A stretch of 64,000 nucleotides of DNA from Synechococcus sp. (lineage in GTDB: Bacteria; Cyanobacteriota; Cyanobacteriia; PCC-6307; Cyanobiaceae), in the NCBI GenBank assembly GCA_047285805.1, contig JBJBCN010000003.1, forward strand, positions 256,001-320,000, written 5' to 3'. The notes beneath the pieces were generated by a model that worked only from the letters and a program-made list of their open reading frames with translations, was not told the DNA's origin and made no database searches. Shown here piece after piece: positions 6,261-53,886 of this stretch (position 1 is the first letter of the stretch; each line of letters begins with the position of its first letter). The translations under genes and the position numbers were made by a program.

Positions 6261-6351
6261 AATCACACCAGCGAAAACTCGTGGACTACGAGTCGGTGGA
6301 GCTGTTGGCTTGTTATGGCTGCTAAGATTAAGATTAAGTTCGGACTACGTC

Positions 6352-6966: not shown

Positions 6967-8102
6967 AGATGATTCCCTTCAATAAGCCGTATCTAACAGG
7001 TGATGAGCTTATAAATATCCAGGCAGCACATCAAATAGGACAACTTGCTGGTGATGGTAATTTTACTAAAGACTGTCAGTCTTGGCTGCAGTCTTACTTT
7101 AATGCTGAACTAGCTCTCATTACTCACTCTTGTACAGCGGCCTTAGAAATGTCAGCGCTTTTGGGTGACATTAAAGCCGGTGATGAAGTGATCTTGCCAT
7201 CATATACATTCGTTTCGACAGCAAACGCATTTGCATTGAGGGGAGCCACACCCGTATTTGTTGATATAAATCCAGAGACGCTGAATGTTGATGAAGATAA
7301 GATGATTAATGCAATTACGAGTAAGACAAAGGCCCTTGTTCCTGTTAATTATGGTGGTTCTTGTTGTGATTTGGATAGGCTCGTCGAAGCCAAGATTGCA
7401 TCTTCGTTGCTTCTCATTGAGGATGCTGCACAATCAATTTTATCGACATATCGAGGAAAGCCACTCGGTTCCATTGGTGATCTGAGTACAATAAGCTTTC
7501 ATGAAACGAAGAATATTATCAGTGGAGAAGGAGGAGCCTTAATTATTAATAATCCTAATTTTTCCGCTCGCGCTGAGATTATTAGGGAGAAGGGAACTGA
7601 TCGTAGTTTGTTTTTCCGTGGGATAACTGATAAGTATACCTGGAGAGATATCGGAAGTTCGTTCTTGCCGGGTGAGTTGATCGCAGCATTCCTCAATGCG
7701 CAGCTAGTGAAGTCTTACGAAATTACCGATAGACGAAAGAGGTTATGGATGCGTTATCACACAGCTTTCGCAGATATTGAATCCATTGGAATTGTCCGTC
7801 GACCAAGAATACCGGAATACTGCAATCACAATGGACATATATATTATCTTCTGCTTAATTCAGAAGCCTCAAGGGATCAGTTTATATCCAGGATGATGGA
7901 GAAGGGGATACGATGCGTTTTTCACTATATTCCCTTACATTCTGCTCCCTTTGGAATTAAAGTCGGTAGAGTTGCTTCTGAAATGAATGCAACGAATCAG
8001 GTCTCTTCAACCATTGTTAGACTTCCTCTTTGGGTTGGACTAGAAGAATACCAAGAATACGTCATAGATGAAGCAATAAATACTCTCAAGACTCTCTTGT
8101 AG
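6963..8102 (+). CDS. rffA: dTDP-4-amino-4,6-dideoxygalactose transaminase (WecE/RffA)
   Basis: MIPFNKP, SCTAALEM, SFHETKN PLP lysine, IIREKGTDRS..FFRG..DKYTW. Confidence 0.9.
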   Translation: MKMIPFNKPYLTGDELINIQAAHQIGQLAGDGNFTKDCQSWLQSYFNAELALITHSCTAALEMSALLGDIKAGDEVILPSYTFVSTANAFALRGATPVFVDINPETLNVDEDKMINAITSKTKALVPVNYGGSCCDLDRLVEAKIASSLLLIEDAAQSILSTYRGKPLGSIGDLSTISFHETKNIISGEGGALIINNPNFSARAEIIREKGTDRSLFFRGITDKYTWRDIGSSFLPGELIAAFLNAQLVKSYEITDRRKRLWMRYHTAFADIESIGIVRRPRIPEYCNHNGHIYYLLLNSEASRDQFISRMMEKGIRCVFHYIPLHSAPFGIKVGRVASEMNATNQVSSTIVRLPLWVGLEEYQEYVIDEAINTLKTLL

Positions 8103-9372
8103 AAGCATTAAAGAGTTCGTATGTATATTTTAGAGTATATGCAAGCATGATTCCAAATATGGCCGGACACCATACGAAGTCAAATAGGTCTTGACTAAGG
8201 AATTGCAAACTGGGGTCATAGGGCCTGTAATTAAAAATCAAGACTGGGATGCATAATACATGCAATACAGCACAAGTAGCGCGATTTAGTTTGAATTTAG
8301 TTATCGCGCTCGTATTAATCAAGATGATTTTTGATGGATTTATAAGATGAGCATAAAAGGCAGATGCTCCAATATAAAAGAAACCTACGGATACAAGCTT
8401 GTAGTTTGCAGATGTAGCAAAGAGATACAGCAAACAAAAAGCAGATGCTCCCATTGCTGCGGTCAACGCGGACATTGTTAATTGTGGGTTTAGTCTAAGT
8501 TCTGTTGAGATATTGACTTTTTTCCCTAAGGATAAAAAAAGCATACTCGTCACTACGATGATCGAGATCTTTATAAATAAGTCGCTGTGAGAGTCAACAG
8601 CTACTAGAAGTCCATGTATCTCTCCTGGCTCTATCTGTATACGAGTGGCATTTTTTCCAGGAAGCCCCGAAGGGAATAGGATGAGTACTGCACACAATGT
8701 GGAGAATATTGATGCAACTAATATTGCTTTTTTCTTGCTAAAATGATTGCTTATAATCCCATTTAAAAAAAGCATTGGAAACGTAAAGACTTTAATGGCT
8801 GCACTCAGTAGAATCAAGACCTGGGACAAAAGCATTTTAATGCTAGTCTTGCGAGATTTATGTCTTGATTTATTTGTCAGCGGTATAACCAGACAGCCAA
8901 GAATGCACAAACTCCAAGATATCGAATCAAGTTGTCCTCTTTCAAGCATATACCTTACAGGATAAGAGAGCCAAAAGACTAAGTAAGCTAAATAAAAGCT
9001 TGTACTACCTGGAGCTCTTAAGCTGACCATAAAGACGGCGACTGCAAAAAAGGTAGCAAAAATAATAGCTAGTATGCTCGGGGATAAAAATAAAAACGAT
9101 GGCAGTACTCTTGCTAGCAGAAACGGGAGTATCGGATAATCAAATCCACCTGGAGGAACGCCATAGAATTGATCACTACAAGAACCTGTTGAGTAGAATT
9201 CAAATACTGGTTTAGAGCAAATAGCATTGATTGTAAGTATATAGATGTCCCTAAAAGGCGGGAATGCGGTTGGAATTCCTGCAAATGGTAGGCCTGCATT
9301 ATCTAAGGCATAAAAAATTACCTCGCCAATGACCAATACTGGAGGCAATACCAAGACTAGATATCTAAGCAT
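8086..9372 (-). CDS. Polytopic membrane protein, GT87/GT-C-like glycosyltransferase
   Basis: Many hydrophobic segments; PFRD, FDYP, ERGQLD and AAIKVF resemble GT87 (DUF2029) motifs. Confidence 0.55.
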   Translation of the reverse strand: MLRYLVLVLPPVLVIGEVIFYALDNAGLPFAGIPTAFPPFRDIYILTINAICSKPVFEFYSTGSCSDQFYGVPPGGFDYPILPFLLARVLPSFLFLSPSILAIIFATFFAVAVFMVSLRAPGSTSFYLAYLVFWLSYPVRYMLERGQLDSISWSLCILGCLVIPLTNKSRHKSRKTSIKMLLSQVLILLSAAIKVFTFPMLFLNGIISNHFSKKKAILVASIFSTLCAVLILFPSGLPGKNATRIQIEPGEIHGLLVAVDSHSDLFIKISIIVVTSMLFLSLGKKVNISTELRLNPQLTMSALTAAMGASAFCLLYLFATSANYKLVSVGFFYIGASAFYAHLINPSKIILINTSAITKFKLNRATCAVLHVLCIPVLIFNYRPYDPSLQFLSQDLFDFVWCPAIFGIMLAYTLKYTYELFNASTRES

Positions 9373-15695: not shown

Positions 15696-17198
15696 ATGGC
15701 TTCAGCGCCCCTGCCCTTGGAGGCCAGCCCGATCGCCTTCGGAACCGATGGCTGGCGCGGCATCCTCGGCTTGGACATCACCGTAGAGAAGCTGCTGCCG
15801 GTGGCGGCGGCTTCGGCGCGTGAGCTCGAGGCTTCGGCTCCGGCCGGCCTGACCAGCCGCGAAGTCGTTATCGGCTACGACCGCCGTTTCCTCGCGCCCG
15901 AACTCGCCGAAGCGATATGCAGCGCCGTCCGCGGAGCCGACCTGGTGCCGGTGCTGGCGGGAGCGCCCATCCCCACTCCGGCCGCCAGTTGGGCCGTGGT
16001 TGAGCGTAAAGCCCTTGGCGCACTGGTCATCACTGCGAGCCATAACCCGCCAGAGTGGCTGGGCCTCAAAATCAAAGGCCCCTTCGGCGGGTCGGTAGAA
16101 GGCGACTTCACACAGCGCGTCGAACGGCGGCTTCAGGCGGGCGGCATCTCCGTGCCGGTCCAAGGGGAGACCCTGCGCTTTGACGCCATGGGGACCTACC
16201 TGGCCGGACTGAAAGCCAAGGTCGACACCCAGTCCCTGAGCGACGGACTGGAACGTCTCGGCCTGCAGGTGATCGTCGATCCCATGCACGGCTCAGCGGC
16301 CGGCGGCCTAAGCCGCCTGCTGGAGGGCGCCGCCCAACGCGATCACCTGCGCGAAATCCGCTCGAACCGCGACACCCTCTTTGGCGGCAATCCACCGGAA
16401 CCCCTAGCCCCCTATTTACAGGAGCTGATCACGGAGGTGCGGGCTTCAACCCTGACGGGCAGGCCAGCGGTGGGCATCGTGTTTGACGGCGATGGCGATC
16501 GCATCGCTGCAGTGGATGAACACGGACGCTTTTGCAGCACCCAGCTGCTGATGCCACTGTTCATCGATCACCTGGCCCGCGCCAAGGGGCTGAGCGGTTC
16601 GGTCGTGAAAACCGTGAGCGGCTCGGACCTTATGCAACTGGTGGCCGAAGACCTGGGCAGGCCCGTGCTGGAGAAAGCAGTGGGCTTCAAGTACATCGCG
16701 GCGGAAATGCTCAGCAGTGACGTGATGGTGGGCGGCGAAGAGTCAGGCGGTGTGGGCTTCGGGAGCCACCTACCGGAGCGCGATGCTCTCTACGCCGCGC
16801 TGCTCTTGATTGAGGCCCTCGTAGAGGGAGGAAAGCCCCTTGGCGTCCGGGTCAGCGAACTCCAAGAGCGCTGCGGAGGTGCCGCGGCCTATGACCGCTT
16901 GGACCTGCGACTACGAGACATGGCCACCCGGCAACGGCTCGAGCAGTACCTAGCCAGCACGCCACCGGCAGAGGTCGCCGGGATCGCGGTGCAAGAGGTG
17001 ATCACAACCGACGGGGTAAAACTGCGTCTGGGCCCCAGCCACTGGTTAATGCTGCGCTTCTCCGGCACCGAGCCATTGCTGCGGCTCTACTGCGAGGCAC
17101 CGTCAGAATCAAGAGTAAAAGAAGTTCTTGCGTGGGCGCAAAGTTTCGCAGGGAGGCAGTCTGAAGCAGAGACATCCCGAAGAGAAACCAGGCCATAA
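15696..17198 (+). CDS. Phosphoglucomutase/phosphomannomutase
   Basis: FGTDGWRG, TASHNP, FDGDGDR, GGEESGG, RFSGTEP. Confidence 0.95.
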   Translation: MASAPLPLEASPIAFGTDGWRGILGLDITVEKLLPVAAASARELEASAPAGLTSREVVIGYDRRFLAPELAEAICSAVRGADLVPVLAGAPIPTPAASWAVVERKALGALVITASHNPPEWLGLKIKGPFGGSVEGDFTQRVERRLQAGGISVPVQGETLRFDAMGTYLAGLKAKVDTQSLSDGLERLGLQVIVDPMHGSAAGGLSRLLEGAAQRDHLREIRSNRDTLFGGNPPEPLAPYLQELITEVRASTLTGRPAVGIVFDGDGDRIAAVDEHGRFCSTQLLMPLFIDHLARAKGLSGSVVKTVSGSDLMQLVAEDLGRPVLEKAVGFKYIAAEMLSSDVMVGGEESGGVGFGSHLPERDALYAALLLIEALVEGGKPLGVRVSELQERCGGAAAYDRLDLRLRDMATRQRLEQYLASTPPAEVAGIAVQEVITTDGVKLRLGPSHWLMLRFSGTEPLLRLYCEAPSESRVKEVLAWAQSFAGRQSEAETSRRETRP

Positions 17199-17223
17199 TG
17201 ACGAATAGGTAATTGCCAAGTGA

Positions 17224-18153
17224 ATGAAGGCTCTAGTCACAGGTGGCGCAGGCTTCATCGGCGGTCATATCGCTAGAGACCTCTGCAGAAAGGGAGAGGA
17301 CGTAACCGTAATTGACAATTTGAGAACGGGAAACATGAAGAATGTGCCGGCTTCATCAAGGTTCCTGAGATTAGACTTAGGAAGAGACAGTCTAGAAGAG
17401 GCTTTCAAGGAAGGTTATGATGTTGTTTATCATTTTGCGGGCCAGAGCTCAGTAGAGATCTCTTATTCCGACCCTCTATACGACCTAGACACGAACTGTA
17501 GATCTACGCTTCAATTGCTAGATCTTTGCAGAAGAAGCGGCACAAATAGATTCATTTTTGCCAGCACTATGTCTGTCTACGGAGGAGAGGGTGAAATGCC
17601 GAAGGATGAAAGTGCACCAAGAAACGGGAAGAATTTTTACGCAATCTCAAAGAAGGCAAGTGAAGACTACCTTTGGATTTATGAGAGGTTTGGAATAAAA
17701 AGTACTGCGCTACGGCTCTTCAACATCTACGGACCAGGTCAGAATTTAGAAAACCTTCGGCAAGGCATGCTCTCTATCTACCTGGCTCAAGCAATGAGAA
17801 CTGGCAAGATTCTTGTCAAAGGAAGCCTTGAGAGGACAAGAGACTTTGTCTATATAGACGATGTCATAGGTGCAACGAGAGCCGTGACAGCAAGTGAATC
17901 ATGCTGGGGCAGAGCCTTGAATGTATGCTCGGGCAAAGAATTCAGCGTTAAAGACATAATAGACTTAATATCCAAGGCACTAATGAAAGATGTGAGCATA
18001 GAGATTGCAGCAGGTACACCCGGAGATATTGACCGGATGGTTGGGTGCCCGGAATTGCTTAAAGAGTTAACCGGGTACGAATGCCGAGTCGGTCTACAAG
18101 ATGGAATAGAATCGATGATAAGCTCAGTCAAAGGAGACAATTACTATGCATAG
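17224..18153 (+). CDS. NAD-dependent epimerase/dehydratase (GalE-like extended SDR)
   Basis: TGGAGFIG, YAISK, RLFNIYGPGQ, RDFVYIDD. Confidence 0.9.
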   Translation: MKALVTGGAGFIGGHIARDLCRKGEDVTVIDNLRTGNMKNVPASSRFLRLDLGRDSLEEAFKEGYDVVYHFAGQSSVEISYSDPLYDLDTNCRSTLQLLDLCRRSGTNRFIFASTMSVYGGEGEMPKDESAPRNGKNFYAISKKASEDYLWIYERFGIKSTALRLFNIYGPGQNLENLRQGMLSIYLAQAMRTGKILVKGSLERTRDFVYIDDVIGATRAVTASESCWGRALNVCSGKEFSVKDIIDLISKALMKDVSIEIAAGTPGDIDRMVGCPELLKELTGYECRVGLQDGIESMISSVKGDNYYA

Positions 18154-18892
18154 CAACAGAAAGATAGGGATTGTAACTGGATGCGGCAAAGGAATTGGAA
18201 GAGCAATTCTGGAGGAACTCGGCAAAAAGCCCGAATGGCATTTGGTAGGTATTCACAGGAGTGGGGTTGATAAAGAGCGTCAGCTTAAACAAGTAATAGG
18301 GAATAGGTTGAAGCTAATCCAGGGTGACGTGACATCAACAACGATTTGGGATGAGGCGATTGATGCAGCTACCAATGCATTTGGCAATTCACCGAAACAC
18401 TATATAGCGAATGCTGGCATGAGGTGTAGGGATAGGATAGAGAATGTTTCAACTGAAAGGCTGGGACAATTGTGGAATACCAACTACTTTGCTCTGCGCG
18501 AGATGATTTGTACAATGACAAGGAAAAAAGTAATTGAGACTTCTAATGTAGTATATATATCTTCCATAGTTGGTCAGCTTGGATTTGCCGATTTAGATGA
18601 TTATGGAGCCACTAAAGCCGCTTGCGACTCGTTACTACGATCAATGGCATCAAGGCACGGACAAGCCAGGTTCAACTCAATCGCACCAGGCTTTACAAAA
18701 AGCTCATACGCCGAAGCATTTGAAAAGAATCAAAGAGATCTGCACGAATGGACATTAGAAAGAGCACGAATGCGCAGGTGGGGTGAGTGCCAAGAAGTCG
18801 CGAAGGTTGTTGAGTTCTTGTGCTCAGAAAGCAGCTCATTCATTACAGGTCAAGTCATCAACGTTGATGGAGGTTGGACTACAAATGCCTAA
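18146..18892 (+). CDS. Classical SDR oxidoreductase
   Basis: TGCGKGIG, ANAG, YGATK, NSIAPG, ITGQVINVDGG. Confidence 0.9.
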   Translation: MHSNRKIGIVTGCGKGIGRAILEELGKKPEWHLVGIHRSGVDKERQLKQVIGNRLKLIQGDVTSTTIWDEAIDAATNAFGNSPKHYIANAGMRCRDRIENVSTERLGQLWNTNYFALREMICTMTRKKVIETSNVVYISSIVGQLGFADLDDYGATKAACDSLLRSMASRHGQARFNSIAPGFTKSSYAEAFEKNQRDLHEWTLERARMRRWGECQEVAKVVEFLCSESSSFITGQVINVDGGWTTNA

Positions 18893-19673
18893 TGCAAGAT
18901 TTATGGTTCTGATTCCTTGCCGCCTTAATTCGACAAGGCTACCAGGGAAAGCGCTGAAAAAACTAGGCAACAAAACGCTGATTGAGACTGTTTATTCCAA
19001 TGCAAAGCAAGCATTAGAAGAGATACGCCTTGATGCAGACATTGCAGTATGTACTGACTCAACAGAGATCGTGGCTGTACTCGCCGCAGGTAGGGTGCCT
19101 ACATACATGACTTCTAGCACTCACAAGAACGGAACAGAGCGGATTGCCGAGTGCATAAGGAGATACGACTTAAAGCATGAGTTTATAATCGACATACAGG
19201 GAGACGAGCCCTTTGTCAATGCAGAGATTTTAGAGGTTGTAGCACATGAAATTCTGGCTCAGCAAGATCGAAACAGTCAACGTTCATACATTGTCCTCCC
19301 GCATCAGCAAATGAGCTACGAGGAAGCTGTAAGGGAAAGCGTCGTAAAACTTGTGCTCAATCGCCATGGCAATGTCATGTACATGAGCAGAGCACTGATC
19401 CCACAAACACACAAACCGAACGACGCAGCCAATTCTGTGCTTTACGCGAAACATCTTTCTGTAATTGGTTTCACAAGATCTGCGTTGTCACGGTATGCAG
19501 AGTTAGAAAGAGGTGAGAATGAATCACGTGAGGATATTGAGTTATTGCGAGCCCTTGAAGATGGAATCATGATAGTATCTCCCAGATCAGAATCCAGCAC
19601 ATTTTCAATTGACACAGAAGATGACCTGCATAAGGCTAGAGGCCTTATATGCACAAACGACGATGGCAACTAA
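18885..19673 (+). CDS. kdsB: KdsB-like ulosonate cytidylyltransferase
   Basis: IPCRLNSTRLPGKAL, NGTERIAE, IQGDEP, MYMSRA, EDIELLRALE, IDTEDDL; ATG 18885 overlaps the SDR stop. Confidence 0.8.
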   Translation: MPNARFMVLIPCRLNSTRLPGKALKKLGNKTLIETVYSNAKQALEEIRLDADIAVCTDSTEIVAVLAAGRVPTYMTSSTHKNGTERIAECIRRYDLKHEFIIDIQGDEPFVNAEILEVVAHEILAQQDRNSQRSYIVLPHQQMSYEEAVRESVVKLVLNRHGNVMYMSRALIPQTHKPNDAANSVLYAKHLSVIGFTRSALSRYAELERGENESREDIELLRALEDGIMIVSPRSESSTFSIDTEDDLHKARGLICTNDDGN

Positions 19674-19682
19674 AATGGTTAA

Positions 19683-20834
19683 ATGAGCATGACTGGAGAC
19701 TCAATTTGTGCTTACGCAGGTTCAGATTTTGCATATAAGATTTTCATCTGTGCTGAACAACAGGATCTAAAGACGTTTGTTGAAGAAGTCGTCAGAAGTA
19801 AGTCTTCAATTGTATTGTTCATTGACTCGTACATTGTAGATTCTCCTGCCTGCAAAGACATTATTCAAGAGTTCACAATTGCCCTAGATGAGGGCATAGG
19901 ATGCACACTGTTTGTCAAATGCTTAGATGCCGGGAAACAAGCAAAGAGCCTGTCAACATTAGGTGATCTAGCTGAATGGTTAGTTGACACGGGAGTTCAG
20001 AGAGATAGTTTGTTTGTGGGCATTGGTGGAGGAGTTATTGGGGATTTGGTTGGACTTCTTTCTGCACTTTATTATAGAGGTGTAGATCTAGTACATATCC
20101 CAACCAATTTATTGTCGATGACGGATTCGGCAATAGGAGGTAAGACTGCTGTCAACACTAGTCGACATGTAAATAGTCTCGGTACGTACAAGCATCCTAT
20201 AGGAACACTCGTTTATCTGCCATTCTTGGAAACGCTGCCTACGAGAGATCTTTGTGCCGGCTTAGCAGAAGTATTAAAGATTAGTCTCTTAAGAGATGAT
20301 GGGCTTTTAGAAATACTTGAAAGCGCAGACAACCTGCACTCATTACTTAGAAATGGGCAAGGTGCACTTATTATAAAGAAGGCCATAGAGTATAAACTGG
20401 TATTTACTGGCAGCGACATTGAAGAAAGGCATAGAAGGCTATTTCTGAATATCGGGCATACATTCGGACATGCCATTGAGGCAATCCAGGATTTGCGGAA
20501 TGAAGAGTATTACCGTCACGGCGAGGCTGTGGCACTTGGTCTGCTATGTAGCTCATATATATCTGAATCATTGTATGGTATTAATGTGCTAGACAGGGTA
20601 AAGACGTTGTTAGAGAAGTACAACCTGCCTGTCAAGTTAGATCGAATTTTTCATGAAGGTTTTTCCGATGCAGATGAGCTTGTTGAGAGTTTAGTCAGGC
20701 TATCATTAAAGGATAAAAAAGGTCAGCGCGGAAAACTGCGCATTGTTTTAATGGAGAACTATTTTTCACCTGTTATTTTGGAGACTGATAATAGGAGACT
20801 CCTGATAGAGGCGTTTAAATGCATAATAGATTAG
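19683..20834 (+). CDS. 3-dehydroquinate synthase-like sugar-phosphate cyclase (accessory AroB paralogue)
   Basis: GGGVIGD, YYRG, PTNLLSMTDSAIGGKT, AEVLK, RLFLNIGHTFGHAIE, HGEAV, DKK; AT-rich codon usage. Confidence 0.85.
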   Translation: MSMTGDSICAYAGSDFAYKIFICAEQQDLKTFVEEVVRSKSSIVLFIDSYIVDSPACKDIIQEFTIALDEGIGCTLFVKCLDAGKQAKSLSTLGDLAEWLVDTGVQRDSLFVGIGGGVIGDLVGLLSALYYRGVDLVHIPTNLLSMTDSAIGGKTAVNTSRHVNSLGTYKHPIGTLVYLPFLETLPTRDLCAGLAEVLKISLLRDDGLLEILESADNLHSLLRNGQGALIIKKAIEYKLVFTGSDIEERHRRLFLNIGHTFGHAIEAIQDLRNEEYYRHGEAVALGLLCSSYISESLYGINVLDRVKTLLEKYNLPVKLDRIFHEGFSDADELVESLVRLSLKDKKGQRGKLRIVLMENYFSPVILETDNRRLLIEAFKCIID

Positions 20835-22102
20835 TTAGGGAGATAGTCAGAAGAAGCAATTATCGATGGGGCCGGATAAGCAAGCGAGATGAAGCAGCAA
20901 AGTATGTGGGGGCTACTATCAGGGATCTGCTACGTCGAGCATATTACGCTTTCAGAGTTTTAGTCCAAGCAGAGCGCATTAATAAGCTAGAGAATATTTG
21001 CAGCAAAAGACAGTTAGTTGCCTATAGTAGAAATAGCGATGGATCAATCAATCATTGGTTAGACAAATACTTTGGTGAAGGGACAGAGTTGATTGACTCT
21101 GTAATCGTTGAGATATCAGCATGCGGAACGGTAAATCTCTGGGAAAGCAAAATGATTGCGGGATCATATGTCCAGTTAGTGCTGCCAGGCCTTGCGTGTA
21201 GGGATTATGTTCTTTTGTTATTAAAAGCAATACGCGTGTATAAAGAGGCGATAAGTCAGCGATCGGCATATTATGCGCAGGTCGAGTCATTCAGAATAGC
21301 AATAGACTACATTCTTAAGCATTTTGCACCGAGCAGTATTGCTTTCCCGTTTGAAGGACAATATTGGGAACAGGTAATTTGCATGATGAGTCGAATAAAT
21401 GGATGCAAGACATATGGCGTATTGCATGCTTTGAATATTAGCTGCTCATTGAATAGTCGACTTGAATTTCATAATGTGCTTTCCCCGGATCATTTTATCT
21501 CGCAATCAGTATACACAAGTTTATTCCTGCAAAAGTTCTTTGGATGGCCTAGACATAAAGCTTGCCTGAAGCGACTTAAGGGTAAGTATCCCTTGAGTCG
21601 TGTCATCGGTGTGCAGAATAAAATAAAAGACACTTCGGATGCCAATGAGATCTTGATACTTGGTAGCTACATGCTGACTGAAGATCTTTCAGCCTTTAGG
21701 TTGCTTAAGTTGCACTTCCCTGGCGCAGTTTACTACTATAAGTCTCACCCACTTAGACGTTCAGACAAAGAGTTTATGTTGTCAATCCATAAGCATTGTG
21801 AGATTCTTCTATGGGATGGAGAAGATAGTGTAGTTTTTGATATCATATTGTCACCACTATCTAGTACAGTTTCTCTAGAATTATTCTTGGCCGGTCAGGA
21901 AAATTTGCTTGTGTATGGACTTTCTAATGGATGCACGCCAAACCCATTTGAGCAGTTTGAGATCAAGCTTCGTACTGAAGCAGCGGCGGATGATGCCAAG
22001 CTATGGTCTTTAGAAAGTGAGCAATCTGTAGCTTCTATAAAAGAGGAGATTTGCGCCCATCAACCCTTAGAAATCGGAAAGCTGGCCCGCTGTCCCAAGT
22101 GA
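20819..22102 (+). CDS. Hypothetical protein, possible CMP-sugar-dependent glycosyltransferase
   Basis: 427 aa; YKSHP motif followed by SSTVSLE; operon context with KdsB-like gene. Confidence 0.45.
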   Translation: MHNRLVREIVRRSNYRWGRISKRDEAAKYVGATIRDLLRRAYYAFRVLVQAERINKLENICSKRQLVAYSRNSDGSINHWLDKYFGEGTELIDSVIVEISACGTVNLWESKMIAGSYVQLVLPGLACRDYVLLLLKAIRVYKEAISQRSAYYAQVESFRIAIDYILKHFAPSSIAFPFEGQYWEQVICMMSRINGCKTYGVLHALNISCSLNSRLEFHNVLSPDHFISQSVYTSLFLQKFFGWPRHKACLKRLKGKYPLSRVIGVQNKIKDTSDANEILILGSYMLTEDLSAFRLLKLHFPGAVYYYKSHPLRRSDKEFMLSIHKHCEILLWDGEDSVVFDIILSPLSSTVSLELFLAGQENLLVYGLSNGCTPNPFEQFEIKLRTEAAADDAKLWSLESEQSVASIKEEICAHQPLEIGKLARCPK

Positions 22103-22144
22103 AGTCTTTTGATAGGTTAAAATAGAAGTTGGCCAAAACAACCA

Positions 22145-24184
22145 ATGACGAGTATTAGTCCTAAATACATAAGGTATATAGATGGGCTAAGAGCACTTGC
22201 TGTTGGTGGTGTGTTCATGAACCACCTCAACGAGGAGCTGCTGAAGAGTGGTTTTTTGGGTGTTGATATATTCTTTGTGATTTCAGGTTTTGTAATTACG
22301 GGGTCGCTTGTAAAGAGCAGAGATCTTTCTCTCGGTGCTTTTTTAAAGCATTTTTATAAACGACGGATCCTAAGGATATTTCCTGCCTTACTATTTTATC
22401 TTCTTGTCGTTGGGTTACTTACAGCATTAATGGTACCCGAGCCATCTTTCTACCTGAAGACAGGCACAAGTGCTGTGTTCGGCTATTCGAATATATTGCT
22501 TGCTAAGGAAGCTGTGAATTATTTCGGCTCTGATGCTGCTTTTAACCCTTTTACTCAGACATGGTCTCTAGGTGTTGAAGAGCAGTTCTATGTATTAATA
22601 CCTGTAATACTCTGGTTGTTCTTTAGATTTAGAGGGCATACTCAATCTGATGGCGACCAAGAGTTGCCTGCTCCCCTGGTCAGATTTATAAGCCTGTTTT
22701 CATTGCTATCACTTTTGTTTTTTGGTGCGGTAGCCGTTATCAGACCACATTTTGCATATTTCTTGATGCCCTTCCGATTTTGGGAAATGGGTCTTGGTGT
22801 CTTAGCATTCCATTTTAGGAACAAGGTTTTTGCGAAAGGGAACCAGCAGCAAGTCCTTTGTAAAGCCATATCAGCAGCTTCCCTTATTATTATCGGCTGT
22901 AGCCTATTTGCGATTAGGGATTATCAGATAGTTTCGACAATAAGTGTGTGTCTTGCGACTACGCTTTTAATAGCTACAACAGCGGATTTGTCTCCTGCCT
23001 CGAGGATACTTTCCTGGAGGCCGTTGGTTTACTTAGGGAAGATTTCCTACTCATTATATCTATGGCATTGGGGCTTGATTGCTTTAAGTAAGTGGAGTTT
23101 CGGGTATACCAGATATTCTTACGTGTTAGTAGTAGTCATGACTTTTGTGCTATCGGTTGCCTCTTATCACCTTATAGAGCAGAAGTTCAGATACATCAAG
23201 CAAAGTCCTGACAGATTAGTTTTTGGCGTTGGTATATCATCCCTTCTTTTGTCATCAGCTGTTTTGTTCGGACTTGAGAATATTTCTAATCTTATTCCAA
23301 TTGGCGTTAATAATAGGCACAAGCCACAAAATATGCTCGTGAACCAGGGGCATATCCATGATCAATTAACGAAGTGCCATACTCCTAAAGATATTTCAAG
23401 GATGGCGAAAAAGTGCTTAGGTACTGAGATAAGTCTATCCTCGAATAAACAAGCGGTTTATATATTAGGTGATAGTCATGCGTCACAACTCTACCCCTCG
23501 GTTGTAAGTGCATTAGACGGACTGCGACGCAATGCTTACGTCTTTTATTTGGCAGAGAATGGCTTTGTGATGAGTATTACAAGCTCAGGTTTTCTGAATC
23601 AGTTTCTTGAAAGAGATGCTTGTTTTGGTTTTACAAGTAGTTCTTGCCTTCCCAACAGCTTTTCTATAATTAAAGACATATTGAGAAACCGACTGAGGCA
23701 CGGAGACGTTGTGATCTTTTCGCTTGCAAGCTATAGGGTAAGTAAGGATAGTGAGGCGAAGCTGCCGCGGAGCTACAATCCGGAATCTGTTTCCAACCTT
23801 GAACATAGCCTCAAGGAATTAGGTAGAGCAATTAAACCTACAAAAGCAACTCTCGTTCTCCTTGACGATATCATTGCAACATGCAGGTATCCCGGGTTGA
23901 ATTACGAGTTCCTAGTCTTGGATAAAGGTAATATCGAGGCATGCACAATCGATAAGTCTATTGGCATTCAAGATAGGGCAGGTTTTACAATGGCGCTCAA
24001 GAATTCAGCTAAAGCTTTAGATAACGTTTTGTATTATGATTTTGCCAGTGAGCTATGCGATAAGAATACCTGCTCTGTTTTAGATCCACGGAGTAAGCGT
24101 CTTCTCTATTCAGACAGCCGCAACCATTTCACAGCTACCTATCCTGACCCATTAAGGGATCAGATGATGAGAGTACTTGAGTAG
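22145..24184 (+). CDS. O-acyltransferase, acyltransferase-3 plus SGNH domain (OafA-like)
   Basis: IDGLRALAV, GVDIFFVISGF, RRILRIFP, WSLGVEEQFY, SYSLYLWHW, GDSHA, DSRNH. Confidence 0.9.
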   Translation: MTSISPKYIRYIDGLRALAVGGVFMNHLNEELLKSGFLGVDIFFVISGFVITGSLVKSRDLSLGAFLKHFYKRRILRIFPALLFYLLVVGLLTALMVPEPSFYLKTGTSAVFGYSNILLAKEAVNYFGSDAAFNPFTQTWSLGVEEQFYVLIPVILWLFFRFRGHTQSDGDQELPAPLVRFISLFSLLSLLFFGAVAVIRPHFAYFLMPFRFWEMGLGVLAFHFRNKVFAKGNQQQVLCKAISAASLIIIGCSLFAIRDYQIVSTISVCLATTLLIATTADLSPASRILSWRPLVYLGKISYSLYLWHWGLIALSKWSFGYTRYSYVLVVVMTFVLSVASYHLIEQKFRYIKQSPDRLVFGVGISSLLLSSAVLFGLENISNLIPIGVNNRHKPQNMLVNQGHIHDQLTKCHTPKDISRMAKKCLGTEISLSSNKQAVYILGDSHASQLYPSVVSALDGLRRNAYVFYLAENGFVMSITSSGFLNQFLERDACFGFTSSSCLPNSFSIIKDILRNRLRHGDVVIFSLASYRVSKDSEAKLPRSYNPESVSNLEHSLKELGRAIKPTKATLVLLDDIIATCRYPGLNYEFLVLDKGNIEACTIDKSIGIQDRAGFTMALKNSAKALDNVLYYDFASELCDKNTCSVLDPRSKRLLYSDSRNHFTATYPDPLRDQMMRVLE

Positions 24185-24247
24185 ATAAAAGCTATGACGC
24201 ACTAAAGTCAGCTACAATAAACATGTACTTTTCGGCCTCAATACGTA

Positions 24248-25042
24248 GTGTTCACAAGACTTCTGCGATACTTTTGGGATGCAAGGCTTGAGTCCACAAC
24301 CGCTGTTAAGGCAAAGGGTCAGTATCTGTTCGCTGTTTACGACTTTGGGCCAATCACTCGGATGAGGGCGAAGACCTTTGAAGTGAAGGAACCAGATACG
24401 CTTAAATGGATTGATAGCTTTAAAGAAGGCGATACTTTTCTGGATATAGGTGCAAACATAGGCATTTATAGTATATATTGCGCGATGCGCGGGGTTCGAA
24501 CTGTTTGCATAGAACCAGATGCACTAAATTTTGCATTATTAAACCTAAATACGAGGCTAAACTGCTTAGGTGGGCTAATAAGTTCTTACTGTGTCGCAGT
24601 TTATGACGCATGCAAGTATTCTCTCTTTTATAGTTCTTCTAATACATGGGGTGGTGCATTAAACAGTTTTGATCAATCGCCGACAGAATCAAGTCAATAC
24701 ACAAGGCTTGACTCTGAGATCTATGCTCAAGGATGTTATGGAACTACTTTGGATGGTTTCTTATGTTCAATAGATTTTTTTCCATCTCATATCAAGATTG
24801 ATATTGATGGAAACGAATTAGCAACCCTAAGAGGTGCATCAAAGACTCTACATGACACCAGACTCAAGTCGGTACTTATAGAACTTGACGAGTCAGACAC
24901 AGAGTATAAAGACTGCCTCAGCCACCTAGAGTCGTCAGGCTTGGTCTTAGCTTCAAAGCAAATATCTGACTACGTAAAGAGTGCGGGACTAATCAAAAAT
25001 ATTAGCAATCATATTTACTATCGACTGCAAAGTCAGAATTGA
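24248..25042 (+). CDS. FkbM family methyltransferase
   Basis: FLDIGANIGIYS, IKIDIDGNE. Confidence 0.85.
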   Translation: MFTRLLRYFWDARLESTTAVKAKGQYLFAVYDFGPITRMRAKTFEVKEPDTLKWIDSFKEGDTFLDIGANIGIYSIYCAMRGVRTVCIEPDALNFALLNLNTRLNCLGGLISSYCVAVYDACKYSLFYSSSNTWGGALNSFDQSPTESSQYTRLDSEIYAQGCYGTTLDGFLCSIDFFPSHIKIDIDGNELATLRGASKTLHDTRLKSVLIELDESDTEYKDCLSHLESSGLVLASKQISDYVKSAGLIKNISNHIYYRLQSQN

Positions 25043-25070: not shown

Positions 25071-25886
25071 TTAGCTATGAAATATATTTAGGCATGAATC
25101 ATCGAGGTCAGGGTTCTGGAATATTACTGGTCTGCAAATCGGCATTCGTGACTTTATAACTAATAGACCTTCAAGATTTGAGATTCTTAGTGACTTTGTT
25201 CCCTTAGCTGAAATTCTTAGCGAAGACAGTACTTGATGATAACTGGTTTGGGCATGGCTTTTTATTGTTATTTCTAAGTTTTTGTCAGTCGGATTATTGA
25301 AGACAAGATCATATATGGATTCAGGATCAAATAGGTAGTTAGGAATGTATTCAAATTCATACCGCCGCTGCTTCGCTGCGTTTTCCTCATAACTTTGAGG
25401 GCTCATGCCTCCAAAGTTACCATGAACAACACTCCCCATTTGACCAACGAGTTTTGATTGACGAAGATAGCCTCTATGAAGAGGTATGGGTTGAATGTCG
25501 TTTACACAGAAGTCATATTGAGTATCTTGGTTAAGATAGACGCTGTGCGTAAAAGAAATATACGGATGGTTAGGCGCTACTGAAGTGCGCGGTGGATCAA
25601 GTTCAAAACGAGGAAAGTACTTATCTGTGTAGAAACGATTTTTCCCCATGGGAAGGCCTTCTGCGTTAAAAAAGTGAAATTCATGGGTTGCATTGCAAGA
25701 TGAGGTCATCAGTAATGCGTAGATATTCTCAGCGAGAAACGTGGAGCTGGCATAGTCAGCTCTCATCACAAATAAGTCGCTATATTCCTGTGCAGGAGCA
25801 AGAGCAGAGCTTAGAGAGTACGGCTTAAAGTCTCTATTCTTGAGGTGTTCAAGTAGTATAGCTATTTTGGCTTTAGTATCAGTCAA
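25071..25886 (-). CDS. Hypothetical protein
   Basis: 271 aa ORF in AT-rich DNA, 8-bp overlap with upstream ORF; no recognised motif. Confidence 0.65.
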   Translation of the reverse strand: MTDTKAKIAILLEHLKNRDFKPYSLSSALAPAQEYSDLFVMRADYASSTFLAENIYALLMTSSCNATHEFHFFNAEGLPMGKNRFYTDKYFPRFELDPPRTSVAPNHPYISFTHSVYLNQDTQYDFCVNDIQPIPLHRGYLRQSKLVGQMGSVVHGNFGGMSPQSYEENAAKQRRYEFEYIPNYLFDPESIYDLVFNNPTDKNLEITIKSHAQTSYHQVLSSLRISAKGTKSLRISNLEGLLVIKSRMPICRPVIFQNPDLDDSCLNIFHS

Positions 25887-26781
25887 TGTGTTCAGCCCAT
25901 GAAGATTTCAGCACGGATACTAGCTCAAACTTACTGCTTCCCCATAGCATTTCATGGGGTGGATGAGTATGTTCTACGTCTATTTCTTCGTACTGTGAAT
26001 TGGCTGATATATTCAGAAAGACTGGTATGAATGATGCAGATTTCGAGACGAGCAAATGCGAATCATCAAACAGGGATGGAAATAGACTTGTGATGTTAAT
26101 TAAGTTTGCTGAATTGGTCTTGACGCTAATCTGACCAACCGTCTCTTTAGTATTTGGGTTTAATATTGAGATTTGATGGCTACTTGAGTTCTCCGCGTCA
26201 GCCACTAAGTTCATGAAGAAGCAATATGTCATACATTCTGCTGGGCTTCTATCTGCTCGCAGACTATCAAAACTTAGGAAAGAGCCATTGCATCTCTGTG
26301 CCATACGAGCCGGATATTCACCTTGATAACACGCGACTGAGCGTCCATACTTAAATTGATAAGAAACTCTCTCTGATACAGGCGCCAGGTCAAGCTTTCG
26401 TGAACACGGATCCGGTAGATATCGAGTCTCCTTAGGGCTGTTCACAGAAAGAGTCGGAATCATAATCAAAAATGAAGAAGGCTCATAAGAAGAAGCGCTT
26501 ACCACTCTGCTATCCCCAGGTTCGCATTTAATCGTTTCGAGTAGATGCCACTTGAAAGAATTCAAGTTATATATATGCAGATAAATAGTTTTTGTCAAAT
26601 AACTTAGATCTGAGCCTTTGCTGATCTGATTTGCAGGAGAGTTGACGAATAGCAAGTTCGTCGAAATAATCCTGGAATGTTGACCTAAATCGTTTTGGAA
26701 GGAGTGTGTGAAAGAAGGGAAAAGAGGGAAGTAGCAACTCATGCAAAAGATGTTAGGCGGACGGCCGCGATTATGCGACAA
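25879..26781 (-). CDS. Hypothetical protein
   Basis: 300 aa ORF (ATG alternative at 26742); no recognised motif. Confidence 0.65.
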   Translation of the reverse strand: MSHNRGRPPNIFCMSCYFPLFPSFTHSFQNDLGQHSRIISTNLLFVNSPANQISKGSDLSYLTKTIYLHIYNLNSFKWHLLETIKCEPGDSRVVSASSYEPSSFLIMIPTLSVNSPKETRYLPDPCSRKLDLAPVSERVSYQFKYGRSVACYQGEYPARMAQRCNGSFLSFDSLRADRSPAECMTYCFFMNLVADAENSSSHQISILNPNTKETVGQISVKTNSANLINITSLFPSLFDDSHLLVSKSASFIPVFLNISANSQYEEIDVEHTHPPHEMLWGSSKFELVSVLKSSWAEHID

Positions 26782-26803: not shown

Positions 26804-27406
26804 ATGGAGTATCTAACAATCGCGAGCAGTAATCAGGGAAAATTAAATGAATTTCGTGAGCTCTTGGTTCATGTCCCTGTGTATGTGCAGAGTCAACCCG
26901 ATGGTTTAAACATACAGGAAACTGGTGCAACCTTCTCCGCCAACGCCCGCCTCAAAGCGGAAGCCGTCGCACAAGCAACGGGACAGTGGGCCTTGGCGGA
27001 CGACTCCGGCCTAAGCGTTGATGCCCTCGGTGGCGCGCCTGGGGTGCACTCGGCCCGCTACGCCACTACGGATGCCGCACGCATTGAGCGTTTGCTCCAG
27101 GAGCTCACGGCAGCCGGTGCCCAAGACCCAATCTCCCGTTCAGCCCGCTTTACCGCTGCCTTAGCTCTCGCTGCCCCCAGCGGACAAGTAGTGCTGGAAG
27201 TGGAAGGGCACTGCCCCGGCCAAATCCTGACGGAAAGCCGCGGTGATGGCGGCTTTGGCTACGACCCCGTCTTCTACGTGCCGGAAGTAAAGCTCACCTT
27301 TGCGGAGATGCCGAAGGAGCTGAAAGCGGAGTTGGGGCATCGAGGTCGCGCCTTCGCTGCCCTGAAACCCCAACTGCAGGCCCTCTTGGCTCAAGACAGG
27401 CAGTAA
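26804..27406 (+). CDS. rdgB: Non-canonical purine NTP pyrophosphatase (RdgB/HAM1)
   Basis: ASSNQGKLNE, ADDSGL, APGVHSARY, GFGYDPVF, HRGRA. Confidence 0.93.
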   Translation: MEYLTIASSNQGKLNEFRELLVHVPVYVQSQPDGLNIQETGATFSANARLKAEAVAQATGQWALADDSGLSVDALGGAPGVHSARYATTDAARIERLLQELTAAGAQDPISRSARFTAALALAAPSGQVVLEVEGHCPGQILTESRGDGGFGYDPVFYVPEVKLTFAEMPKELKAELGHRGRAFAALKPQLQALLAQDRQ

Positions 27407-29707: not shown

Positions 29708-32525
29708 GAGCGAAGACGCAGAGCGACAGCGCCATCATCGCGTAACGGAGTATTAAGCGGGACCCTGAACGTTTAACGCAGGCGCCTTGCGCGGAGAAAC
29801 AACGCGGAGGGGAATGCATAGAGGACTAAAAAAACCGGGAGAACCTTCACAAAGGCCATGAACTCACCCACACCACCAGTGACCACGCCCAAATACACAA
29901 CGGGCACAAGCAAAAAACCCGCTACCTCTATAGAAAGAAACCTGAGCAAGAACCAGAGCAATACACAAATTCCTAATCGGGAAACGGCAAGCCACATGGC
30001 ATAAGACAAGACCGCCAAAGCACTGTCGAATTGGAGAAAAAATGGCAGCGCCTGGGTCTCAACTAAATCGACTTGATTTTTCCCGTAGCATTGACCAATC
30101 AGATATTCAGGAAGTCGGGATGGCTCATATCCGAGCAATCGCCTCAACGGAAGAGGTTGCGAACCAATGAACTCTGATGCTAAAGGCCCTTTGAGCAAGC
30201 TCAACTCAGGCGCGAATGGGCATTTCTTTTCCAAAATCAGATTTCGCGCATGAAGCGCTGTCGAAGAGGAGCCAACACCACTCAAACGATAGCCAAAGTC
30301 TAGAGATAGACGCCGATGCAATGAAAAGAAATGCTGCTCGATTTGGTCTACATTTGGAGCAAAACCTGTTGGACCAAACTGACCCTTAAGCACCGTTGGG
30401 AACGAGTATCCGACGACCAACAATGAACATAAGAGTGCAGAAAGCGTGAGCAGCTTACGTAACGCATGCTGCTGCCAAACCCCCAAAAGGGACGCTAGCG
30501 AGAGCGCAAAAGAAATAGAAGAGATTAGACAGTAAAGACGCTGGCGAAAAACAACAAATAGAATAATGTTCAAAAGACATGCAGTCAATACAAAATAAAG
30601 ATACGACCGTTTTTTGACCGAAACCCCCAAAACCCCAAGGGCAATTGCGGGTCCAGCAGGCACAGAGAAGTAGGTCGAAACAATCGCCTTATCAAAGAAA
30701 TTAAGTGAGCCAAAGTCAAAATATTCCGTACCAATGATTGAACCAAAGCGAAAAGCAATGATTGCGAGAAGCGCAGTTCCAACGAAGCCGTAGATACGCA
30801 GAGAAAACGATTTGACAATCTGCAATATCTGCAGCTCACAAGCAACAAGTCGCCTAGGAAAATTAGCAACTTGCGGACCAGCAATCAGCAATAGAAGGGA
30901 AAGAACAGAGGAGGCCCCAACCATCAAAGCGGCTTTCTGAAATAAGGGAGAATAAATATTCCAGTTGAGGCCTGACGAAGGATTTTCAATGAGATCTGGT
31001 CTCAGCGCCCCAACGATGTTCGTCAAAGGACCAAAAAACCAAAACCAATATAACGAAATCAATAGAGACGCAGCCAAAAGCAAAGAGCTTCTGCCATATA
31101 GTCGTCGAGAGACAAGACATACCCCGAGCAGGGCCAAGGCAACCAAGAGCTCAAGAATTAAAAACACACTCCCTTCCCTGACCTAATATGGGGAGACTCC
31201 ACTTGAGCTCAAAAAGATGTTGGGCTCAATTGTAGCCTTCGCCCTTGGCCTCAACCCTCCCAGGGCAGTACTGCTATCTGGGATCGCCTTAGCTGGACAT
31301 TCCGCATATCTACTCCTGCGTGAAAAACAAAGGAATAAAAAGTTTTCACTATCAATAACTGTCAGATCTAGCTTTCAAGGATTGCATCTTGAAAGCAAGG
31401 GTAATCAATCACTACTCGTCCTTGGGCTACTTTTGACCTTTGGATTTTTGGTTACTTATTCTAACCTGATCAACGACCAAGACAGCACTTCTTCGACCAT
31501 AGAATACTTGGCATTAATTCCTATCTGCATATCTCTCGCCGCAGGCAGGCTGAATGACATAACCCCAAAAGAACTCACGCAATTAGCAATTTCCTACTCA
31601 GCTGGGAGCCTCATTTACGTTTTAGCATGCCTAATTTATACAAGATCACAGGGAGACTTCAATCTCTTGTCTCTGTTCTTTAAACAATCGCACAATGAAC
31701 TACTCGCTCCCTGGGGACACTTAAACAATTCCGTCAATCTAAGGACAATTGAACAGTCGCTACTCTTCCCAATATCCTTGCTTCCCGTGTCGATTGTCGC
31801 TTTTGCAAGAAGCAAAGCAAAAGCGACAGGCTGGCTTTTCGCTTTACTCACTGGAACGCTTGCGCTTTTTCTTTCACGCGCATTCAATTCATATTTCACT
31901 CTGTTGGCTTTATCTCTGAGCAGTGCGGTAGCGCTCGCTTCGGTTACGTCGACACAAGACAGAATGAAACATTGCTTTATAAGATGCAAAAAGCTCATCA
32001 CAATTTATGCAGCAACCTTAATCACAACGATTGTCTGCTCTTATCTGATGACCAAAGGTTGCATCATTATTGATGAGCGCCTCTCGAGGGCGGCGGCAGC
32101 TATTCACCATTTGCCTTTCTTGCCACAAGAGGCCGTAGGTCTCTCATTCTCCTATCAGGAAGCATGCACCAATAAGACAGTCACTTTTATCTCAACAGCT
32201 GGGGACTCTCTTCACAACATTTTTCTCGACTACTCCCTGCAAGCCGGGCTAATTGCTGGAGTTTCTCTTTTTGCATGCACTGCACTCTTAACTGGAAGAG
32301 TCTTTTCCAAGTACTTTGAATCTCTTGGTAATAAGAATCAGGAAAACATGGGCACGGTTCTAAAGATGAGCGCGGCCGTTTCTATGACTGGGACATCCTG
32401 GGTTCTTTGGCTATTTCAACCCATATCAAGCTCGAATTTCTCAATGTTCCTATGTTCACTATACTTTCTAGCACTTTGCTCTAGTGCAGTCCTAGCCCAT
32501 CCAGAGAAAAAACCACCAATCCGGC
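29708..32525. other. AT-rich islet C (two divergent membrane-protein genes)
   Basis: GC drop between carotenoid oxygenase and hisB. Confidence 0.8.
29773..31167 (-). CDS. Polytopic membrane protein, putative polysaccharide polymerase (Wzy-like)
   Basis: 464 aa, many TM-like segments, FRQR after a TM helix, long hydrophilic loop; function inferred. Confidence 0.5.
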   Translation of the reverse strand: MFLILELLVALALLGVCLVSRRLYGRSSLLLAASLLISLYWFWFFGPLTNIVGALRPDLIENPSSGLNWNIYSPLFQKAALMVGASSVLSLLLLIAGPQVANFPRRLVACELQILQIVKSFSLRIYGFVGTALLAIIAFRFGSIIGTEYFDFGSLNFFDKAIVSTYFSVPAGPAIALGVLGVSVKKRSYLYFVLTACLLNIILFVVFRQRLYCLISSISFALSLASLLGVWQQHALRKLLTLSALLCSLLVVGYSFPTVLKGQFGPTGFAPNVDQIEQHFFSLHRRLSLDFGYRLSGVGSSSTALHARNLILEKKCPFAPELSLLKGPLASEFIGSQPLPLRRLLGYEPSRLPEYLIGQCYGKNQVDLVETQALPFFLQFDSALAVLSYAMWLAVSRLGICVLLWFLLRFLSIEVAGFLLVPVVYLGVVTGGVGEFMAFVKVLPVFLVLYAFPSALFLRARRLR

Positions 32526-32536
32526 TCACGAATTAG
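31217..32536 (+). CDS. Polytopic membrane protein, O-antigen ligase/Wzy_C-like
   Basis: 439 aa; DER...R loop followed by [17 protein letters not shown], like the WaaL HN.(Y/F)L...G.G motif. Confidence 0.6.
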
Positions 32537-52937: not shown

Positions 52938-52954
52938 GAGACTGAGTACAGATA

Positions 52955-53878: not shown

Positions 53879-53886
53879 GACTATAT

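Follow-up and report, generated by a model that had tools for sequence, protein, structure and literature searches.

Why does a Synechococcus carry, in an AT-rich island, a second gene of the 3-dehydroquinate synthase (DHQS, AroB) type beside a gene for a sugar-activating enzyme? The question is raised by a stretch of 64,000 nucleotides of Synechococcus sp. (GenBank assembly GCA_047285805.1, contig JBJBCN010000003.1, positions 256,001 to 320,000 of the forward strand; below, the window), in which a sugar-phosphate cyclase gene is found in one operon with genes for a short-chain dehydrogenase/reductase (SDR) and a KdsB-like cytidine monophosphate (CMP)-transferase. An earlier sequence-only reading had described a co-directional, partly overlapping, AT-rich operon of seven genes without a KdsA/NeuB-type synthase, and had proposed that it makes a carbocyclic or a terminally deoxy ulosonate for the cell surface. 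The operon structure has been borne out, with all seven genes on the + strand and family matches in agreement, and no KdsA/NeuB-type synthase has been found within the island. We now consider it rather likely that the operon represents an undescribed branch of the shikimate pathway, in which a new clade of non-cyclizing "cyclases" (or else a CMP-activated carbocycle) provides the surface glycans of abundant marine bacteria with a seven-carbon acid not known before, and that a T4-like phage carries the whole route, from DAHP synthase (DAHP, the 7-phosphate of 3-deoxy-D-arabino-heptulosonate) to transferase, in order to alter the host surface or its own virion. That the product is derived from DAHP and linked to CMP appears probable.

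Conservation of a Three-Gene Core

A protein search with the cyclase has yielded 389 matches at E ≤1e-40, among them graded relatives of 44-79% identity. From the alignment of the relatives, a motif for the V/I-N variant has been built and scanned against metagenome contigs, which gave at least 120 matches, 80 of them with flanks; 79 of these 80 loci contain a called cyclase open reading frame (ORF), and 35 extend at least 1.7 kb to both sides. The sequence-only reading had called for a search in other genomes for a neighborhood of aroB-like, kdsB-like and SDR genes. Such a neighborhood is strongly conserved, as in 33 of these 35 loci both partners of the cyclase, SDR as well as CMP-transferase, lie within 1.7 kb of it (29 KdsB-like, 10 NeuA-like, 6 with both). 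The control consisted of 79 other aroB loci, which were obtained, together with one clade member, from a generic AroB motif scan of genome contigs with at least 600 matches, and which do not amount to a census; here a KdsB- or NeuA-like gene has been found in 0/79 (up to 8 kb on each side) and an SDR within 2.5 kb in 1/79. Gene orders vary (SDR-KdsB-cyclase; NeuA-cyclase-SDR-KdsB; SDR-cyclase-NeuA), and, with cyclases at least 80% alike removed, the pairwise identities of the partners follow those of the cyclase with Spearman coefficients of 0.58 (SDR) and 0.52 (KdsB), values inflated by shared ancestry. The pathway is composed of SDR, CMP-transferase and cyclase, plus a loosely conserved GT-B transferase. 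The epimerase, O-acyltransferase and FkbM genes of the operon are accessory and have been rejected as core genes.

Surface-glycan genes are the typical neighbors of the module, including the TIGR04326 and TIGR04331 families, ABC exporters, CDP-sugar enzymes, Wzy_C, NeuB and Maf. GC content falls below 30% in 55 of the 80 loci, and many of the low-GC loci are presumably SAR11-like. Within the window's own family, the motif is present in 6 of 401 genomes, and these belong to 5 genera. Among 401 sampled genomes from the class of another carrier (G456), one match at E 1e-100 has been identified as housekeeping aroK-aroB, with no clade member found, and searches of plasmid and phage records gave only matches of 27-39% identity, none identified as a clade member. 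L003 has, between the cyclase and the GT-B gene, a second, partial cyclase match (6683-7189), in which 168 aa of the C-terminus are repeated almost exactly.

A separate aroB above the family cut-off is kept in five family relatives and one further carrier, and the separate high-GC aroB and kdsAB anticipated for the window genome have been found there: aroB (C2:789182-790300, GC 0.68) is 33% identical to the island cyclase, kdsA scores above its cut-off beside a canonical kdsB, and neuB is accompanied by a neuA-like gene. Activation of 3-deoxy-D-manno-octulosonate (Kdo) as the purpose of the module has been rejected. One genome (G034, 99% complete) carries the module without a kdsA match, and its only full KdsB-like match is the module's copy, which speaks against Kdo as the substrate there. 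A second carrier (G394) likewise gave no kdsA match. No WaaA-type Kdo transferase has been matched in the window genome, despite a kdsD/kdsC/kdsB/kdsA-like cluster at G000:C3:474746-479089, so that the destination of Kdo in this genome may be a polymer different from the core of lipopolysaccharide (LPS). For the LPS of marine Synechococcus WH8102 and CC9311, a passage of a review reports neither Kdo nor heptose (PMC4515613).

A Separate Clade of DHQS-Like Enzymes

The motifs noticed in the cyclase at first sight (AEVLK, RxxLNxGHTFGH, HGEAV, DKK, and VN in place of KN) are indeed present in the sequence. Its best sequence matches in the PDB are DHQS (E 1e-46), and it shares with AroB (TIGR01357; PF01761 and PF24621) the fold family, the Zn ligands and the carboxylate- and phosphate-binding residues. 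However, it scores 252 bits against TIGR01357, below the cut-off of 305, with five relatives at 246-283 and a distant clade member (G455) just above it at 310. It differs from AroB further in the loss of two otherwise invariant residues, Glu83 and Lys161, in being an extra copy beside an intact aroB, and in its location in glycan islands where SDR and CMP-transferase genes accompany it. Another uncharacterized relative of AroB is the TIGR04425 family, named as an AroB-related putative sugar phosphate phospholyase (cyclizing). The module cyclase falls outside of this family, as 177 and 168 bits have been obtained where 400 are required.

For the comparison of conserved positions, 77 module enzymes have been aligned with 80 housekeeping AroB and 7 other cyclases. 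Invariant in 77/77 module enzymes are R130, D146, K152, N162, E194, K197, K236, E246, R250, N254, H257, H277 and K343, and position 261 is Gln in 18/77 and otherwise His. Among these, K152, K236, R250, R130, N162, N254, K343, E194, H257 and H277 are taken by us to be the carboxylate, phosphate and Zn ligands of DHQS. The motif search pattern fixed V/I161, N162 and Y167, so that the replacement of Lys161 of GKN by V/I is set by the search; position 83 lay outside of the pattern. At this position, Glu (GExxK) is found in 80/80 housekeeping AroB and in all 7 other cyclases, and in 0/77 module enzymes (Lys in 65). Both 83 and 161 are presumably NAD contacts.

The synthases of 2-epi-5-epi-valiolone (EEVS), desmethyl-4-deoxygadusol (DDGS) and 2-deoxy-scyllo-inosose (DOIS), EboD and aminoDHQS are, like the module cyclase, AroB paralogues redirected to another product. 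In contrast to these, the module cyclase has a DHQS-like active site, does not group with them in trees and is tied to nucleotide-sugar activation rather than to free cyclitols. The rows of sedoheptulose 7-phosphate (S7P) cyclase, DDGS-like, DOIS and EboD-like enzymes differ from the module at 250 and 254. At 236/254/261, EEVS and DDGS (L214-L216, annotated S7P cyclases, and L217, DDGS-like) show Met, Asp/Ala and Pro, where the module has K236, N254 and H/Q261; at 250/254, the single representatives of DOIS and EboD have A/E (L213) and A/D (L219), and R250 and N254 are kept in 77/77 module enzymes. EEVS/valiolone chemistry has been rejected; the active-site pattern of the module is DHQS-like and not S7P-cyclase-like.

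Two trees have been calculated, a quick one with 101 rows and a careful one with 50 hand-chosen rows (25 module, 18 housekeeping, 7 others), the outgroup names being taken from record annotation or gene context and none from assayed enzymes. The module cyclases are found on one side of a branch with 99/91 support, apart from the DHQS, EEVS, DDGS, DOIS and EboD representatives; the placement in a tree that the sequence-only reading had called for accordingly gives a clade of its own. Constraining the cyanobacterial module enzymes to group with cyanobacterial AroB is rejected by the approximately unbiased test (p-AU 1.4e-75).

Partner Enzymes

The SDRs of the module form a dedicated group. The Ser-Tyr-Lys triad (S140, Y153, K157) and the motif NAGxRxR (R93, R95) are invariant in 44 aligned module SDRs, position 38 at the end of the second strand is R/K in 51/52, and the RxR motif occurs in 56/64 SDR ORFs of the loci, the remaining 8 being second, different SDRs. 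With the basic side chain at position 38, which we read as a preference for NADPH, these features suggest that the module SDR is probably an NADPH-dependent reductase of an anionic substrate.

The KdsB-like enzyme of the window passes NF003952 (207 bits, cut-off 193) and does not reach TIGR00466 (133 bits, cut-off 155). R13, K22, R86, D107, R169, E216 and D243 are invariant in 57 module copies of the CMP-transferase, and those residues of the CTP_transf_3 domain that bind CTP, Mg and the carboxylate are retained in the KdsB type of the window. In 48/48 enzymes of this type, the canonical Tyr of HLGIY is replaced by an aliphatic residue (HLSVI in the window) and the canonical Gln of LEQLR is replaced as well, by Leu in 47 (IELLR in the window). 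Eight NeuA-like copies with an intact nucleotide-binding loop never occur together with KdsB in the same locus; of 14 degenerate copies, 9 accompany KdsB, 4 lie on short contigs and 1 is found with a second, intact NeuA-like gene. One working CMP-transferase is therefore apparently kept per module. Judged from the sequences, the CMP-transferase has evidently been recruited three times independently, from three sources, and CMP activation looks obligatory in the module. In nine loci (L006, L096, L105, L127, L130, L134, L157, L161, L163), a loop-less NeuA-like gene stands directly upstream of the cyclase and a second KdsB type follows the SDR; the loop-less protein is possibly a non-catalytic partner.

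The orphan protein encoded directly after the cyclase has been modeled with a pLDDT of 85.5 and adopts a GT-B fold. Polysialyltransferase 5wc6 is matched with Z 10.7 (rmsd 5.2, 256 residues aligned) and is on rank 2 in Foldseek. Its relatives number 38 at E ≤0.001, H310-P311 is present in at least 90% of 25 aligned rows, and hhalign gives 97.9% to the C-terminal part of a TIGR04326-type cluster and 94.5% to a family present in 15 loci. The model makes the orphan a candidate CMP-sugar transferase. GT-B or Maf-type transferase genes flank the module in 12 of the 15 loci with 4 kb on both sides, a count that includes five single proteins added by hidden Markov model (HMM) or TIGR04326 match. Maf genes are found beside the cyclase in L110.

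A Phage Locus and the Substrate

A viral contig (L206, G460) carries a cyclase, an SDR, an adjoining PF01973 (Maf-type) domain scoring just under its cut-off (33.9 against 34.6 bits) and, two genes after the cyclase, a fusion of a NeuA-like enzyme with DAHP synthase. The fusion protein has 498 residues and a KPRTS motif, and scores 361 bits against TIGR01361 (DAHP synthase, cut-off 268) and 103 bits against KDO8P synthase (cut-off 314). Such fusions of CMP-transferase and DAHP synthase recur in 7 protein clusters of 64-98% identity, one relative being located on a 280 kb contig (P0166). As the phage encodes the activating enzyme and a DAHP synthase in a single protein close to its cyclase, DAHP is proposed as the substrate. 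Among the substrates suggested earlier (DAHP, Kdo 8-phosphate and S7P), DAHP thus has become the most likely by residues and fusion, and the other two less so.

In the record of L206 (35 kb, rated 13% complete), PHROG matches have been obtained for a family-B-type polymerase, clamp loaders, a helicase and a ribonucleotide reductase; by this gene content we read it as a large T4-like phage. Its glycan cluster also holds two carbamoyltransferases and a HAD-nucleotidyltransferase. Scans of viral contigs have located the module in L206 only. LPS genes have been reported in marine T4-like phages (passages of PMC7029224 and PMC5332604), and the terms "dehydroquin" and "heptul" are absent from the main texts of both papers.

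Proposed Pathway and Alternatives

From gene linkage, the clade, residue patterns, the fusion and folds we infer all reactions of the following route. DAHP would be provided by the housekeeping DAHP synthase (C3:587013 in the window genome), and by the phage's own enzyme in the viral case. As suggested by the conserved residues, the DHQS-like enzyme with NAD+ and Zn2+ would oxidize C5 and eliminate the C7 phosphate. The carbocycle would not be closed; instead the SDR would reduce a ketone (C5 or C6), resulting in a 3,7-dideoxy-hept-2-ulosonic acid, which would transpose the logic of RmlB and RmlD to a ulosonate. The KdsB- or NeuA-like enzyme would then form the CMP-glycoside, a reaction in line with the function of its family, and a GT-B or Maf enzyme would transfer the acid to O-antigen, capsule or a surface glycoprotein, with acyl- and methyltransferases possibly adding further groups to it there. 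To this reading, in which DAHP is dephosphorylated, reduced and CMP-activated to give 3,7-dideoxy-heptulosonate for a surface glycan, we assign a rough probability of 0.45. A CMP-carbocycle has no ring oxygen and does not allow the oxocarbenium-type transfer by GT-B or Maf transferases. As it cannot be a glycosyl donor, the deoxy-ulosonate has been ranked above the carbocycle; of the two products that had been put forward from the sequence it is the favored one, and both this product and its attachment to LPS or capsule are predictions.

Several observations weigh against this preferred reading. The clade keeps the complete DHQS catalytic set and may still close the ring. One locus (L098) has a cyclase without SDR or CMP-transferase, L110 has an SDR only and no nearby CMP-transferase, and G394 combines the cyclase with a NeuA-like gene and no module-type SDR (best match 29%, elsewhere). 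The loci are moreover non-independent, as 46 (SDR) and 43 (KdsB) are left after dropping cyclases at least 80% alike. The fusion is linked to the cyclase in one contig only (L206), of 7 clusters, and the best fold matches of the orphan are UDP-GlcNAc 2-epimerases (Z 13.2-10.8), so that its donor is not fixed by the fold. A literature search for 7-dideoxy-heptulosonic acids with polysaccharide or CMP terms gave no paper and no natural example. In favor of the reading, passages of PMC7144000 describe the redox step at C5 as the main task of DHQS and allow for a spontaneous course of ring opening and aldol closure; therefore the early steps can be uncoupled. The same paper implies dehydroquinate as the default end product, which counts against the reading. 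The main rival, possible if doubtful, is that dehydroquinate or a stereoisomer is formed, reduced by the SDR to a quinate-type acid and provided with CMP by the KdsB-like enzyme at the tertiary hydroxyl or the carboxylate, the cyclitol being built into a surface polymer by a non-glycosyl step or ending as a free CMP-carbasugar. All DHQS positions for the full reaction are kept (H261 being Gln in 18/77), the characterized family members named in passages of PMC4426668 and PMC12904256 are cyclases, quinate mimics a ulosonate, with CMP-quinic acid being a synthetic sialyltransferase inhibitor (by a reference title in PMC8470674), and carbocyclic LPS sugars exist in caryose and bradyrhizose (a passage of PMC9671505). 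The pair of invariant Arg in the SDR would suit the one acid as well as the other. However, the genes flanking the module in the 12 of 15 loci counted above encode GT-B or Maf transferases, which by established chemistry are unable to use a CMP-carbocycle. All carriers tested have an intact aroB, so that a plain supply of dehydroquinate cannot explain a fixed divergent clade, and the dehydroquinase and shikimate dehydrogenase families are unmatched among 121 further module-locus proteins.

Rather unlikely is a DAHP-derived product that is not 7-deoxy or arises in another order of steps, with cyclase and SDR acting as a C5 epimerase towards a Kdo-like D-lyxo ring, or with CMP added first, the ring being locked by it, and an exocyclic enol ether or its reduced form as the result. 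The loss at 83 and 161, the presumed NAD contacts, could weaken the hold on the cofactor, so that oxidation is no longer coupled to re-reduction, and the Kdo ring is the evolutionary substrate of KdsB-type enzymes. A substrate analogue that does not open its ring halts DHQS before cyclization (a passage of PMC7144000). Yet the residues for phosphate elimination are fully retained, the conserved core has no phosphatase, and the analysis has given no sign that the cyclase site could accommodate a CMP group. Quite unlikely is the conversion of Kdo 8-phosphate, a nonulosonate phosphate or S7P into a terminally deoxy octulosonate or a C7 cyclitol. The window genome has kdsA and neuB, NeuB homologues lie near some module loci, and the activating enzymes derive from the Kdo and sialic-acid families; against this, G034 and G394 lack a kdsA match, the fused synthase scores as DAHP synthase with its KPRTS motif, and S7P cyclases have Met/Asp/Pro where the module has K236/N254/H261. 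A DAHP synthase gene has also been seen near the outlying cyclase of L144, a locus that has neither SDR nor CMP-transferase and offers weak evidence. The ordinary reading, in which a variable LPS island by chance houses a redundant aroB together with a second Kdo cytidylyltransferase, is highly improbable: the best database labels are 3-dehydroquinate synthase and KdsB and G455 just passes TIGR01357 (310 against 305), but the linkage (33/35 versus 0/79), the separate clade (99/91), the rejected grouping with cyanobacterial AroB (p-AU 1.4e-75), the occurrence in a genome without kdsA and the three apparent independent recruitments of a CMP-transferase all speak against it.

Relation to Known Pathways

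With the KdsA-KdsC-KdsB, NeuB-NeuA and PseI-PseF/Maf systems, the route proposed here shares a phosphoenolpyruvate-derived 2-keto-3-deoxy acid, a CTP_transf_3 enzyme and transfer by GT-B or Maf proteins. Unlike the Kdo and nonulosonate pathways, the core of the module has no dedicated KdsA/NeuB synthase or phosphatase; the phosphate is apparently removed by an AroB-type lyase followed by the SDR, and the C7 backbone would come from DAHP. In its logic the pathway follows the CMP-ulosonate routes already known; the enzyme at its entry is new, and so, probably, is the product. Full-text literature searches, which largely exclude subscription journals and do not include supplements, have returned no paper describing the gene set. 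The main text of a 2026 review on cyclitols (PMC12904256) contains no CMP, lipopolysaccharide or O-antigen, and that of a study on O-chain clusters of Pelagibacterales (PMC11898729) contains no aroB, dehydroquin-, cytidyl-, Kdo or heptulos-, terms that its supplements could list.

If the proposal holds true, the few keto-deoxy acids activated by CMP, namely Kdo, Kdn and the sialic, legionaminic and pseudaminic acids, would be joined by a new member, and the sugar-phosphate cyclase family would gain a new reaction that links primary aromatic metabolism to the diversity of cell surfaces. The module is located in variable surface-glycan islands, both in picocyanobacteria and in many marine contigs of very low GC, as well as in a T4-like phage, and for this reason it may have an influence on phage recognition in the sea. 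Where annotation names a second aroB or kdsB in islands of this kind, the label is probably wrong. With three small soluble enzymes and DAHP, the claim is directly testable.

The Island and Its Neighborhood

The features of the island are given in Table 1. The genes overlap by 8 nt (epimerase/SDR), 8 nt (SDR/KdsB-like, where the ATG at 18885 overlaps the SDR stop) and 16 nt (cyclase/orphan).

Table 1. Genes of the low-GC island, with positions in the window.
Feature	Position	Strand	Basis
NAD-dependent nucleotide-sugar epimerase/dehydratase; accessory	17224..18153	+	PF01370 E 1.9e-52
Core SDR, classical, dedicated subfamily	18146..18892	+	PF13561
Core KdsB-like CMP-transferase, sugar pocket altered	18885..19673	+	PF02348 E 1.9e-35
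Core DHQS-like sugar-phosphate lyase/cyclase, separate clade	19683..20834 (database start 19689, P0001)	+	PF01761+PF24621
Orphan, GT-B fold and HP motif, candidate CMP-sugar transferase	20819..22102	+	no family; model
AT3-SGNH (OafA-type) O-acyltransferase; accessory	22145..24184	+	PF01757+PF19040
FkbM-family methyltransferase; accessory	24248..25042	+	PF05050
Protein m1, invariant HGN and C-terminal His	25071..25886	-	no family; alignment
Protein m2 (YQxEYP, EHTHP), usually paired with m1, predicted beta-rich	25879..26781	-	alignment; model pLDDT 67.8

Island genes have a GC content of 0.405-0.452, compared to 0.61 for the two large contigs of the genome, and the low-GC block extends past FkbM to 26781, adding the minus-strand genes m1 and m2. 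By its gene content, the host is probably a marine picocyanobacterium. The block of 9.6 kb is flanked by pgm and rdgB. Since these are direct neighbors in 14/14 other genus members with a fetched rdgB orthologue locus, the island represents a 9.6 kb insertion. Terminal repeats of more than 7 bp have not been found at its ends, and the nearest tRNA, the sole one, is 5 kb distant. Low GC is also seen in roughly 100 bases each of the flanking genes, at the 3' end of pgm (17100-17200) and the 5' end of rdgB (26804-26900), as if these end segments had been co-imported. In a genome of the same genus (L005, G125), a different version of the module is inverted on the opposite side of rdgB, with the order FkbM-m1-m2 kept; its cyclase is 36% identical to that of the window and has Gln at 261, and its transferase is of the TIGR04326 type. 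Together with the window island, this marks the rdgB site as a recurrent insertion site.

Among the accessory genes, close relatives of the epimerase (54-57%) are confined to three of the other module loci fetched (L003, L087, L141), L221 holds a 58% relative of the L003 copy, and the O-acyltransferase has no relative in the other fetched module loci. The FkbM cluster is present in 10 loci, window included. A second low-GC FkbM-type gene (G000:C2:1132121-1134010) encodes 629 aa with a long C-terminal extension and is 24% identical to the island FkbM. Neither m1 nor m2 matches a Pfam or NCBIfam family; each has been found by HMM in 7 loci (window, L005, L096, L128, L140, L157, L160), and the pair often adjoins a methyltransferase. 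Their His motifs are invariant (HGN and a terminal FHS/FHG; YQxEYP and EHTHP), and the best match of the fold search with m2 (Z 7.8) is uninformative. In eight loci of very low GC (L086, L117, L119, L129, L137, L148, L152, L156), the core is followed by a radical S-adenosylmethionine enzyme, a second SDR and a GT-B gene, often with FkbM and a 2-oxoglutarate-Fe oxygenase-like gene next; this set downstream of the core is a possible tailoring cassette. Four further low-GC surface-glycan blocks are located in the window (3727-9372, 29773-32536, 37837-39072, 51558-63903), including a TIGR04441 (LA_1612 family) gene and genes of the CDP-glucose 4,6-dehydratase type, and several such glycan islands are found in the 259-426 kb stretch of C3.

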